Shown: positions 27,236-28,735 of the stretch, piece by piece
Numbering within the stretch: position 1 is the stretch's first letter
Layout: every line of letters starts with the position of its first letter
NCBI GenBank assembly: GCA_019694465.1
Contig: JAIBBV010000005.1
Location: forward strand, 13,767-77,766
Direction: 5' to 3'
DNA length: 64,000 nt
From: Oligoflexia bacterium
GTDB lineage: Bacteria; Bdellovibrionota_C; UBA2361; JAFLCA01
Program-made: the position numbers and the translations under genes
The notes under the pieces: generated by a model
What the model saw: only the letters and a program-made list of their open reading frames with translations
What the model was told of the DNA's origin: nothing
Databases searched by the model: none

Positions 27236-27556
27236 ATGCGCAAACTTCACAGGCCAGTACAGTACTTAAGCGCATTATTCGTACTATCTTTCGTTTGCTT
27301 ATCTCTACTGGCCAAGATTCCAAACTCACATTGCCACTGTCACGATAGCAAAAGACCGGCACAACCCACAAAGTCAGAGCCCTGCCCTTTTGGCCAAATT
27401 CGCGCTCTAGGCTCGCTACTGAATAGCGTGGAGCGTCCCAGTCCAAGGCTGCAGCCTGTTATCGCTATAGTTTCACCCATTCCCATTGGATTTGAGCGCG
27501 TAGCTTTGCGCGATCATACAGGTTCTGCTAGGGCGCGCGCACCTCCTGCCATCTAG
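27236..27556 (+). CDS. DUF2946-like leader protein with HCHCH...CP metal motif and C-terminal RAPP arrest motif
   Basis: Hydrophobic N-terminus, SHCHCHD...EPCPF, Pro-rich linker, ends ARARAPPAI-stop; 180 bp upstream of an OM transporter gene. Start could be 27224, 27230 or 27236. Confidence 0.7.
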   Translation: MRKLHRPVQYLSALFVLSFVCLSLLAKIPNSHCHCHDSKRPAQPTKSEPCPFGQIRALGSLLNSVERPSPRLQPVIAIVSPIPIGFERVALRDHTGSARARAPPAI

Positions 27557-27736
27557 TACGAATCTTACACGAGACCCTTTGAACTACAGGGACAGAGCGC
27601 ATCCGGGAATTAAACATAGAATGTGGCTCACATTATGAGACTAACGGCATTCGGCTACATTCTTTGATGCTCTCTAGTGCAGTCGTGTGAATAGCCGAGT
27701 GTAGTTAACTAGCTAACCAATCTTTTGGAATTTGTT

Positions 27737-28735
27737 ATGGACTCAAAAAAAGTCATTGCTATAATTTTTCTCTCCTCACTTATTTGCCGACCTGCTTCGT
27801 CGATTGCCTGCGACACATGTGCCTTAAGCCAGGTAGAAGCCACCCAGGAGCTTGGAGCTGGAGAATTCAACATATCTCTTGCGCAGCAACTTACCCACGC
27901 GGATCGCTTGCGGATGGAGGGGAAGTACTTTGCCAGCGAGCACAAAGAAGAGATTGTTAGTTCGACCAGCACTATTTCAGTTGGCGCTGGGCTGACTGAT
28001 GATCTTCGCCTCGAAACTAAGCTACCCTTCCTATATCGCTACTACCGTCAGATGGGCATGGATGGCGTTGACCCGCACTCGGAGAGTGGGCTTGGGGACA
28101 TTAGTTTTCTTCTTCGCAGTCGCCACCACCTTTGGAAAGGCGATGATGGCAGAGTCTGTGCTAGTCTATTTGCTGGCATAAAACTGCCCACAGGAGACAC
28201 GGACAAACTTCGCCAAGAAGAAGTGCCGTCGGAAGACATGCACATAAACTCTATCATGCTCAGACATGGCGACGAAGAGCATATGCTAAGCGCAGTCCAT
28301 GAACATGATATAGCGCTGGGGTCTGGCTCAATTGATTTTCCGATTGGAGCCAGTGTGCGAGCTGACTGGGGGCGCCTAGGCGCAGGAACGGAGGCTCAAT
28401 ATACATTCAGAAATCGTGGCGATTATGGCTATCGCTATGGGGATGACCTGCAACTCTCAGCTTGGCTAGGCGGGACACTAAATACAGACAGCGCCACGAT
28501 CACACGGCTTGGAGCGCGGCTTTCGTATGATCATAAGAACAGCGATCGCCGCTATGGGACCGAGGAGGAATCAACTGCTTCTAATGTTGTATACGTTGGA
28601 CCCGAATTTGAGTTGGCACATGCTGGCAAGCTTGATTTACGCGCGGGAGTAGAGTTTCCGATTGTGGAGGACGCAGCTGGTCTCCAACTTGTTCCCTCGA
28701 CTCGCACTAGGATAAGCCTGGCTTATCGCTTCTAA
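27737..28735 (+). CDS. Outer-membrane beta-barrel transporter (MetA-pathway/phenol-degradation-like), probably metal-related
   Basis: Signal peptide then ACDTCA (CxxC); GLGDISF; GIKLPTG; His-rich loop HGDEEHMLSAVHEHD; LGSGSIDF; ends LAYRF. Confidence 0.75.
   Translation: MDSKKVIAIIFLSSLICRPASSIACDTCALSQVEATQELGAGEFNISLAQQLTHADRLRMEGKYFASEHKEEIVSSTSTISVGAGLTDDLRLETKLPFLYRYYRQMGMDGVDPHSESGLGDISFLLRSRHHLWKGDDGRVCASLFAGIKLPTGDTDKLRQEEVPSEDMHINSIMLRHGDEEHMLSAVHEHDIALGSGSIDFPIGASVRADWGRLGAGTEAQYTFRNRGDYGYRYGDDLQLSAWLGGTLNTDSATITRLGARLSYDHKNSDRRYGTEEESTASNVVYVGPEFELAHAGKLDLRAGVEFPIVEDAAGLQLVPSTRTRISLAYRF

Follow-up and report, generated by a model that had tools for sequence, protein, structure and literature searches.

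A putative metal-sensing arrest leader with three invariant cysteines upstream of an outer-membrane barrel gene in Bdellovibrionota

In the 64,000-nt stretch of DNA from an Oligoflexia bacterium analysed here (the window), a 106-codon gene preceding the gene for an outer-membrane barrel is very probably regulatory, and probably, by analogy, it belongs with CruR and CutF in one functional class of sensor leaders acting in cis. Metal-sensing arrest leaders such as these are a recently described means by which the ribosome reads extracytoplasmic or cytoplasmic metal levels. The leader family appears to be a novel counterpart of the copper-sensing leaders CruR and CutF, to which it is unrelated in sequence, and the barrel channel family is likewise new as a studied target of leaders of this type. 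The gene is conserved, it carries invariant residues and a spacer of fixed length, its synteny with the barrel gene is constant, and the fold of the barrel can be assigned; from the likeness to CruR and CutF we infer stalling, its ligand, the direction of control and the coupling at the RNA level.

The open reading frames and their translations bear out the initial annotation in so far as it described an exported leader with HCHCH, CP and a RAPP motif two residues before the stop, followed by a CxxC/His-rich barrel gene (Table 1). The translation of the leader reads MRKLHRPVQYLSALFVLSFVCLSLLAKIPNSHCHCHDSKRPAQPTKSEPCPFGQIRALGSLLNS...GSARARAPPAI*. As judged by eye, its N-terminus is basic and continues into a hydrophobic segment of 17 residues, and in 64 of 66 members of the leader family a small residue (S/A/G) precedes the motif [KR][IVL]P. 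An ATG at 27230 offers an alternative start.

Table 1. Coordinates of the leader, the barrel gene and their parts in the window
Feature	Coordinates	Strand	Evidence or remarks
Leader gene, 106 codons plus TAG	27236..27556	+	ORF, translation, homologues in relatives, HMM search
Hydrophobic signal/anchor segment YLSALFVLSFVCLSLLA	27263..27313	+	Preceded by basic residues; followed by a small residue, then K-I-P
First putative sensor motif, P-N-S-H-C-H-C-H-D	27320..27346	+	Family alignment
HCHCH, leader residues 32-36	27329..27343	+	
Second putative sensor motif, C-P-F-G-Q-I-R-A-L	27383..27409	+	Fixed ruler counted from its Cys
CPF, leader residues 50-52	27383..27391	+	
Linker, variable in sequence, fixed in length	27410..27535	+	Spacer counts in the family
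RAPP, putative arrest motif	27536..27547	+	Residues 101-104, then Ala-Ile-TAG
Intergenic region, 180 nt	27557..27736	+	Without significant fold, Rfam match or conservation with relatives
Predicted outer-membrane 12-strand barrel, 332 aa	27737..28735	+	Pfam PF13557, AF2 model, Foldseek
CDTC (CxxC), barrel residues 25-28, predicted mature N-terminus	27809..27820	+	C25 nearly invariant (alignments A2, A4)
Variable-length His/Asp/Glu-rich loop, barrel residues 151-199, between strands 5 and 6	28187..28333	+	Alignments, AF2 model

With respect to its distribution, the leader family comprises 65 clusters among 1.84 billion protein representatives in a profile HMM search, all of about 100 aa, and is present in 19 of 124 genomes of the phylum Bdellovibrionota. 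It was detected only by whole-genome six-frame and exhaustive HMM searches, a word-indexed protein search with the leader having returned no matches; in the annotation of one relative the leader gene was left uncalled. The leader-barrel pair recurs in relatives of the same genus, family, order and class, a barrel with the motif ACDxCA lies directly downstream in all 12 plus-strand leader loci from the phylum search, and the same barrel was found 3' of the leader at every locus examined.

Conservation in the family is confined to three cysteines (those of CxC and CPF), one arginine and the C-terminal R-x-P-P, in place of which five members have QAPP. The conserved N-terminal half can be written as P-T-S-x-C-x-C ... 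C-P-F-G-x-L-R-x-L, where the first motif has the consensus P-[TNS]-S-x-C-x-C-[HN]-[DE] with the proline and both cysteines invariant, and where Cys and Arg of the CPF motif are invariant and its Pro and Phe nearly so. The family does not have CxxC (CxxxC in CutF) but CxC and a lone cysteine in CPF[G], the place of a second cysteine being taken by Gly in 50 of 66 members. The histidines beside CxC are replaced by R, K, N, Q or other residues in various members, and therefore HCHCH, initially read as a replacement of CxxC, is not the conserved unit, and the argument from its histidines to Ni, Zn or Co as the sensed metal is weak. Copper or another thiophilic metal is the likelier ligand. The flanking genes in the window, which code for a photolyase, a SIMPL protein and an MFS transporter, are uninformative as to the identity of the metal.

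A sensor part that is invariant in Cys only might also belong to a leader of the same arrest architecture in which the three cysteines report the thiol-redox state or disulfide-forming capacity of the periplasm (Dsb activity, oxidative stress) instead of metal, the formation of a disulfide during translocation being the pulling force that releases the stall. Such a role would be in line with the CxxC of the barrel itself, which needs periplasmic handling, and with RAPP/RGPP uORFs reported upstream of DsbA/thioredoxin genes (PMC12992588). However, the downstream gene codes for a channel that carries a His/acidic loop, not for a redox enzyme, and elsewhere the barrel family occurs together with a true DUF2946 leader of the copper type and adjoins metal-uptake genes (see below), so that redox sensing appears unlikely as compared to metal sensing.

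At the other end of the leader, [R/Q]xPP is found 1-15 residues from the C-terminus in 64 of the 65 family representatives, the cores of these 64 being RAPP (33), RGPP (10), RSPP (8), RDPP (7), QAPP (5) and REPP (1), with one case assigned by eye. Arginine occupies the first core position in the window leader and in 59/64 representatives, and QAPP accounts for the other 5/64; this arginine was irreplaceable in mutagenesis of ApcA, ApdA and ApdP, reportedly also in SecM (PMC12992588). Mutagenesis of ApdA/ApdP further showed that the residues permitting arrest at the second position include G, S, D, P and E, and the residues found naturally at x, with A in 33 representatives, G in 10, S in 8, D in 7 and E in 1, all belong to the set allowing full or partial arrest (PMC12992588). 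By analogy with these peptides, a stall would be expected to hold Pro103 of the window leader in the P site, with Pro104 occupying the A site.

The distance from the cysteine of CPF to the second proline of the core is 51-55 residues in 63/64 representatives and 54 in the window leader, while the sequence of the linker is unconserved. This ruler persists in members with an insertion of 39 or 113 residues between CxC and CPF, a distance ranging from 13 to 113 residues across the family. Since the leader-barrel pair recurs in relatives, and since the tail and its distance from CPF are kept but the intervening sequence is not, the arrangement is not due to chance.

The same data bear on whether the small protein might instead be a stable partner of the barrel, for instance a membrane-anchored or periplasmic metallochaperone, with RxPP having a structural role or causing a mild pause without regulatory effect. 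While the N-terminal half is well conserved and resembles a binding site, and synteny with the barrel is strict, the C-terminal 40% of the protein is devoid of conserved sequence but strictly conserved in length, and its tail motif is one strongly avoided in proteomes. In addition, the variation at x stays within the published arrest-permissive set (PMC12992588), and CruR and CutF have likewise gone undetected as stable proteins; a function of this kind is thus quite improbable.

As to the proposed kinship with DUF2946 proteins, PF11162 did not match the window leader at E<=1 in a Pfam search or three of its homologues at E<=10, and none of the leader loci was matched in a six-frame search of 91 genomes of the order. 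When a profile of 52 family sequences was compared by hhalign with four DUF2946-like leaders, only eight tail columns were aligned, with a probability of 25%. Membership in DUF2946 was therefore rejected at the HMM as well as at the profile-profile level, and the mechanism is carried over to the leader family by analogy and not by homology. What stands of the initial comparison with CruR and CutF is an exported Cys leader with an RxPP tail, a fixed spacer and a constant barrel; two traits of the DUF2946 type are shared, namely the RAPP-like tail a few residues before the stop (RAPPAI* in the window) and a spacing between Cys motif and RAPP that is conserved within a few residues.

CruR (Bp2923 of Bordetella pertussis, DUF2946/PF11162) is the upstream ORF of the TonB-dependent copper transporter gene crtA(bfrG) (PMC9426467; PMC12914433), and its CxxC is separated from RAPP by 45 intervening residues, a fixed spacing whose alteration changes regulation (PMC9426467). 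Like CruR, the window leader is an exported peptide of small size, encoded at the head of an operon for an outer-membrane transporter, probably of metal, and its Cys motif and its C-terminal RAPP near the stop are a fixed number of residues apart; the distance to the second proline is about 52 residues from the first cysteine in CruR as against 51-55 from the cysteine of CPF in the leader family, and 48-54 from the first cysteine in ten measured DUF2946-like or other R[AG]PP-tailed leaders, which overlaps the family range. The intergenic region is long in both (162 bp in CruR, 180 nt in the window). However, the sensor is CxxC in CruR and CxC together with the single Cys of CPFGxLR in the leader family, the cargo is a TonB-dependent transporter in the one case and a TonB-independent barrel in the other, and CruR belongs to the Proteobacteria. 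If the analogy holds, the metal-sensing arrest design operates outside this lineage, in Bdellovibrionota, keeps the same ruler on a different sensor sequence (three dispersed cysteines, without detectable DUF2946 homology), and can have a small TonB-independent channel as its cargo.

CutF of Rhodobacter capsulatus combines CxxxC with an EF-P-dependent PPP repeat, in contrast to CxC/CPF and RxPP in the leader family (PMC9973294; bioRxiv 10.1101/2025.02.05.636593). [quoted passage not shown] In both, the Cys/His motif lies about 45-55 residues before the Pro motif, which would bring it to the periplasmic vestibule of SecY while the ribosome is stalled. CutF-like proteins were grouped into 29 jackhmmer/SSN clusters (PMC9973294), whereas the comparison made here was with the rule; the classes of their neighbours (OEP, RND, CusF, TonB, PCuAC, HupE/UreJ) do not include the barrel of the window type.

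ApdA, ApdP and a set from Streptomyces lividans are likewise small secreted proteins with an R-[A/G]-P-P core close to the C-terminus (PMC7897499, PMC10951233, PMC12992588). On the strength of this tail and of the export signal, the leader might be thought of as a monitor of secretion or envelope stress of the SecM/ApdP kind, reporting the efficiency of Sec translocation and tuning the synthesis of outer-membrane proteins independently of metal. However, the characterised peptides of the ApdA/ApdP class regulate Sec/YidC components or other Streptomyces genes, whereas the gene downstream of the leader codes for no component of Sec, YidC or Bam; a monitor of this sort, which would also leave the invariant Cys triad at its fixed distance without a role, has very little to recommend it. 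The survey of RAPP/RGPP uORFs in this literature lists a 'transporter' class, not named further, as overrepresented downstream of RAPP (153 vs 79) and RGPP (112 vs 10) uORFs; members of the leader family were not found in the parts of its tables that were covered, and a barrel of the window type is not discussed as cargo.

The barrel itself has a signal peptide (residues 1-24), after which the mature N-terminus reads CDTCA, and only part of its sequence matches Phenol_MetA_deg (PF13557), with E 9e-6 and 26.3 bits (cut-off 22). Its AF2 model (pLDDT 87.8) is that of a 12-strand COG4313/FapF-like channel, the best Foldseek matches being FapF (5O67) and a COG4313 channel (4RL8) with E ~1e-12 and TM 0.6-0.7. 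The CDTC motif lies in the segment corresponding to the N-terminal plug that occludes the lumen in COG4313 channels (PMC4493636). By strand count in the model, the His/acidic loop, which is flanked by the conserved GIKLPTGD and HxHDxALGSGSxDFP and includes a low-pLDDT stretch at residues 168-178, would be the extracellular L3. While the fold is common to COG4313 Pput2725 (4RL8; PMC4493636) and FapF (5O65-5O68), the subfamily differs from these by CxxC at the mature N-terminus, the long His/Asp/Glu loop and the Pro-tailed Cys leaders upstream, and while the known members are linked to the uptake of hydrophobic compounds or the secretion of amyloid, barrels of the window type have metal-uptake genes as neighbours elsewhere. 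The uncharacterised barrel family may be a missing route by which copper or other divalent metals enter through the outer membrane, a poorly understood step.

In the mechanism favoured here, which assumes metal sensing, the N-terminal hydrophobic segment would target the leader peptide to the Sec translocon, and the ribosome would pause at R101-A-P-P104 with Pro-tRNA in the A site. The invariant cysteine of CPFGxLRxL would then lie 52-55 residues from the peptidyl-transferase centre, about as far as the ribosomal tunnel and the SecYEG channel reach when taken together, and the CxC pair upstream of it would have freshly emerged on the periplasmic side. Whether or not a thiophilic metal is bound by the three thiols would set the force on the nascent chain and thereby the duration of the stall two codons before the stop, Cu(I) being the most likely metal and closure of a disulfide a less likely alternative. 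Occupancy of RAPP by the ribosome would in turn set the expression of the barrel gene, either by blocking Rho, as in CruR, or by exposing the start region of the barrel gene, as in CutF. The barrel, a 12-strand channel independent of TonB, would have an N-terminal plug tipped by CxxC as well as the His/acidic loop and would probably serve metal uptake; following the logic of CruR, the preferred direction is that metal lifts the stall and thereby switches off the channel. The natural RxPP cores (A, G, S, D, E and QAPP) with their strict spacer offer a ready series on how force on the nascent chain leads to release from arrest.

The intergenic region, the folding of which had been proposed initially as a check, shows no significant fold, neither alone (z -1.18) nor from the stall site to the barrel start (27520-27770, z -0.16). 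The spacer has no Rfam match at E<=1 and no intrinsic terminator or promoter on the + strand, and no alignment is obtained between the spacers of the three closest loci. A strong C>G bubble as in CruR was rejected for the window locus, where a weak C>G stretch at 27514-27617 is all that is present. CutF stalling melts a defined stem-loop over the RBS of cutO, whereas no such hairpin is evident at the window locus; under constrained folding of nine loci, the Shine-Dalgarno sequence is unmasked by the stall in L004 only, and direct pairing of the stall footprint with the start region reaches significance in L034 alone, L026 being a marginal case. A conserved RBS-masking stem-loop as the general mechanism is thus unsupported, with masking at L004 and L034 and marginally at L026. 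As the intergenic length varies from 41 to ~255 nt across loci and its sequence is unconserved, no single coupling mechanism is evident.

Related barrel loci number at least 289 in public genomes, and the metal-uptake genes that adjoin them are MbnP with FeoAB, DtxR with ZnuA/ABC-3, and MntR with NRAMP. The view that a MetA-type barrel is in itself a novel target has to be given up, since in Dokdonella a bona fide DUF2946/RGPP leader (E 1e-11) precedes the same barrel family, and other Pro-tailed leaders do so in several phyla. The leader types found before the barrel are CxC..CPF..RxPP in Bdellovibrionota, true DUF2946, HPCxxC..PPxPPPR in Verrucomicrobia and CPxxCPMH..PPDTPPPI in Binatia. We tentatively propose that the CxxC-tipped, His-looped barrel is a widespread TonB-independent channel for metal uptake which several sequence-unrelated Cys leaders may independently have brought under nascent-chain control in at least six phyla. 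A fixed ruler is also present in each of the other leader types measured (63-67 and 50-51 residues), so that the distance from Cys to Pro is fixed in three measured types and, as published, in DUF2946; if the proposal is correct, 'tunnel plus translocon length' would apply generally as the design rule by which ribosomes sense extracytoplasmic conditions. Altogether, some Pro-tailed Cys leader is found at 44 of 77 evaluable barrel loci, including miscellaneous PPPR-tailed leaders without family assignment.

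By ORF translation, all the sequence features claimed in the initial annotation are present in the window: the HCHCH and CP motifs, the terminal RAPP near the stop and, after it, a CxxC/His-rich barrel gene. The leader peptide has a basic N-terminus (MRKLHR) followed by a 17-residue hydrophobic segment and a first cysteine motif (KIPNSHCHCHD), from which 13 residues separate a second motif (CPFGQIRAL), and after a further stretch of 42 residues it ends in ARAPPAI. The leader and the barrel gene lie 180 nt apart; with a photolyase gene diverging on one side and an MFS gene converging on the other, they form a two-gene unit.

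Although a word-indexed protein search with the leader returned no matches, six-frame searches of related genomes found it at the level of genus, family and order, in each case with a homologous barrel downstream, and a closer metagenomic relative (barrel 59% identical) shares the photolyase-leader-barrel synteny. On the metagenomic contig of the closest relative the leader had been missed by the gene caller; small genes of this class are systematically under-annotated. A profile built from eight leaders and searched against 1.84 billion representative proteins matched only 65 clusters, of about 85-130 aa save for a few with N-terminal extensions. Within the phylum set, the leader is present in 19 of 124 genomes, and in all 12 plus-strand loci of that search a barrel with the start A-C-D-x-C-A lies some 40-180 nt downstream. 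The leader is therefore a real, conserved gene family.

Over 52-66 sequences, the (near-)invariant residues are a proline four residues before the first cysteine, both cysteines of CxC, C-P-F with an arginine six residues past its cysteine, and the closing [R]-x-P-P, before which alanine is the usual residue. The histidines of HCHCH are frequent but not conserved (H/R/K/T/S between the cysteines, H/N/R/Q after them), and the earlier suggestion of Ni, Zn or Co sensing, which was based on them, is thereby weakened. The stretch of roughly 40 residues from CPFGxLRxL to ARxPP is unconserved in sequence, with L, S, V, A and P frequent in it. Its length is nonetheless fixed: in 63 of 64 cluster representatives the second proline comes 51-55 residues after the CPF cysteine. 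The CxC-to-CPF distance, by comparison, can be anything from 13 to 113, and between 1 and 15 residues follow PP. Even in two members with 39- and 113-residue CxC-CPF insertions, CPF and PP are still 54 residues apart, and the conserved ruler is therefore the stretch between the CPF cysteine and the putative stall site.

With respect to the tail, RAPP occurs in 33 leaders, RGPP in 10, RSPP in eight, RDPP in seven, QAPP in five and REPP in one. Systematic mutagenesis of ApdA and ApdP showed that the arginine and the first proline are essentially irreplaceable. At position 2, arrest is fully sustained or even enhanced by glycine, is partly sustained by Ser, Asp, Pro and Glu (in ApdP also by Val), and is lost with the remaining residues (PMC12992588). 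All natural residues at this position (A, G, S, D, E) belong to the permissive set, and this agreement between natural and experimental variants is the strongest indirect evidence that the tail may act as an arrest core, the five QAPP members being the exception. [quoted passage not shown]

The Pfam DUF2946 match proposed as a check failed: PF11162 matched neither the window leader (E<=1), nor three homologues (E<=10), nor, when 91 genomes of the order were searched in six frames, any of the leader loci, and profile-profile comparison with DUF2946-like leaders aligned the 8-residue tail alone. Membership of the leader in DUF2946 is therefore not supported. Elsewhere in the order, the same 91-genome search did turn up DUF2946 leaders that are genuine or close to threshold. 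One of them, a sub-threshold match in genome G005 (..CELC..HYFGRAPPV-stop), directly precedes a TonB-dependent receptor ORF in the classical CruR arrangement, and two RxPP leader families therefore coexist in the order. Another, in genome G004, of the window's own family, has HHHQ..CAAC and an ..SRGPPAL-stop tail. It precedes an exported outer-membrane protein that begins with a coiled coil and ends like a porin, and that may be a further type of channel controlled by RGPP.

In CruR, the 45 residues from CxxC to RAPP are kept within 1-2 residues in >2000 homologues, and altering this spacing changes regulation (PMC9426467). This corresponds to about 52 residues from first Cys to second Pro. 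The same distance, measured in ten leaders that are DUF2946-like or otherwise R[AG]PP-tailed, is 48-54, as against 51-55 from the CPF cysteine in the present family. Judged from sequence, the leader family has the same geometry as DUF2946/CruR, without detectable homology. Since several DUF2946 members have C-P-Y-C where the leader family has CPFG, we suggest that the latter may take the place of CxxC, its second cysteine lost and a CxC pair added upstream. Taken together, the initial interpretation as a metal-sensing arrest leader is partly supported, and the leader is probably a sequence-distinct variant of that known class.

In the barrel protein, a signal peptide with the ending SSIA is followed by C-D-T-C-A at the mature start, and there is an insert rich in His, Asp and Glu; the protein scores 26.3 bits against Pfam Phenol_MetA_deg (cut-off 22). 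Its predicted AF2 structure (pLDDT 87.8, 33 homologues used) resembles FapF and the COG4313 channel Pput2725 (E ~1e-12, TM 0.6-0.7), both of which are also weakly matched by sequence profiles. In COG4313 channels, which are barrels of 12 strands, the first ~14 residues block the lumen from the periplasmic side (PMC4493636); in our protein the corresponding segment starts with CDxC. Strands 5 and 6 are joined by a His/Asp/Glu-rich loop of variable length, with conserved GIKLPTGD and HxHDxALGSGSxDFP on either side. The database relatives are all annotated as hypothetical. Of 289 related loci confirmed in public genomes, the best 80 are from Bdellovibrionota, Verrucomicrobiota, Binatia, Acidobacteriota, Geobacterales, Gammaproteobacteria and others. 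Neighbouring genes in other lineages (see table) point to metal acquisition but to no single metal, and the subfamily may not be copper-specific. In two unrelated contigs, the barrel gene or its leader has a gene for a CHRD-domain protein immediately before it.

Of the 77 barrel loci whose upstream DNA is long enough, 44 are preceded by a small ORF with Cys and a proline-rich tail, of the types listed in the table. A Pfam scan of one Verrucomicrobia member gave no significant match; the Dokdonella leader is a clear DUF2946 protein (E 1e-11) and the Nevskia one a sub-threshold match (E 9e-4).

Features of the window and of related loci (L-numbers, loci from other genomes or contigs)
Feature	Locus	Position (strand)	Details
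Leader ORF	window	27236-27556 (+)	106 codons, ORF translation
Barrel ORF	window	27737-28735 (+)	332 aa, ORF translation
Ala-Pro-Pro codons	window	27541-27548	CACCUCCU
Weak C>G stretch	window	27514-27617	
Leader missed by gene caller	L089	2570-2902	
DUF2946-like leader (G005)	L116	1495-1839 (-)	
TonB-dependent receptor ORF	L116	1-1446 (-)	
RGPP leader (G004)	L119	1492-1818 (-)	108 aa
Exported protein	L119	128-1414 (-)	428 aa
Barrel homologue locus	L112	6001-10608	MbnP, FeoA, FeoB
Barrel homologue locus	L091	6001-12739	DtxR-type repressor, ZnuA/ABC-3 importer
Barrel homologue locus	L004	1742-3185	MntR, NRAMP
CHRD-domain protein gene	L090	5104-5556	
CHRD-domain protein gene	L114	252-941	
Verrucomicrobia type, HPCxxCK ... 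PPxPPPR	21 loci		first Cys to last Pro 63-67, mostly 64
Other PPPR tails	10 loci		
Bdellovibrionota type	6 loci		
Binatia type, CPxxCPMH ... PPDTPPPI	5 loci		last Cys 50-51 residues before last Pro
R[AG]PP leaders, Gammaproteobacteria	2 loci		Dokdonella, Nevskia
Verrucomicrobia conserved membrane leader, GGHWAxLQSVAW..TFDGxHPCxLCK..PPxPPPR	L022, L036-L038, L041-L043, L045, L050, L055, L059, L060, L062, L064, L067, L068, L071, L073, L076, L081, L085, L086	upstream of ~3001	
Binatia and related MAG leaders	L070, L080, L083, L087, L088		Cys/His-rich CPPxCPMH..., end EPPDTPPPIxxx-stop

At the level of sequence, this census ties the barrel family to CruR/CutF-type regulation and suggests that it has repeatedly recruited nascent-chain sensors. 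The MetA-type barrel had been put forward as a new target of such leaders; its position after the leader is borne out, its uniqueness is not, given the 44 loci with Pro-tailed Cys leaders, DUF2946 in Dokdonella included. Downstream of RAPP/RGPP uORFs, according to a published survey, an unnamed class of transporters is enriched, one example being a gene of ~340 aa (153 vs 79 for RAPP/AAPP, 112 vs 10 for RGPP/AGPP; PMC12992588), and we suspect that these transporters may be PF13557 barrels. The leader appears to control an uncharacterised COG4313-like channel, apparently a common target of such leaders.

As to the metal, Cu(I) is the likeliest candidate in view of the three invariant thiols, the CxxC on the barrel and the link to DUF2946. 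Other divalent metals are possible, given the loop of His and acidic residues and the Feo, Mnt and Znu neighbours in other lineages, and the leader thiols might, less probably, read thiol-redox state rather than a metal. Since the barrel looks like an uptake channel, we favour a mechanism in which metal would relieve the stall and the channel would be switched off.

Concerning the coupling to barrel expression, folding of the intergenic RNA, also proposed as a check, gave no significant structure (z -0.16 and -1.18). Neither an Rfam match, nor an intrinsic terminator or promoter on the plus strand, nor an alignment with the spacers of the closest relatives was found for the window spacer, and spacer length varies from 41 to ~255 nt. 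With its unstructured 180-nt spacer, the window would be nearer to cruR-bfrG (162 nt, Rho-dependent) than to cutF-cutO. In our modelling, a ribosome parked at RxPP would free the barrel start region only in L004. Complementarity between footprint and start region is significant only in L034, where a CUCCU at the tail is complementary to the barrel's AGGAG (duplex z -3.8). The equivalent codons in the window, GCA CCT CCT, read the same as the anti-Shine-Dalgarno end of 16S rRNA; as codon choice varies among the homologues, this likeness may be incidental.
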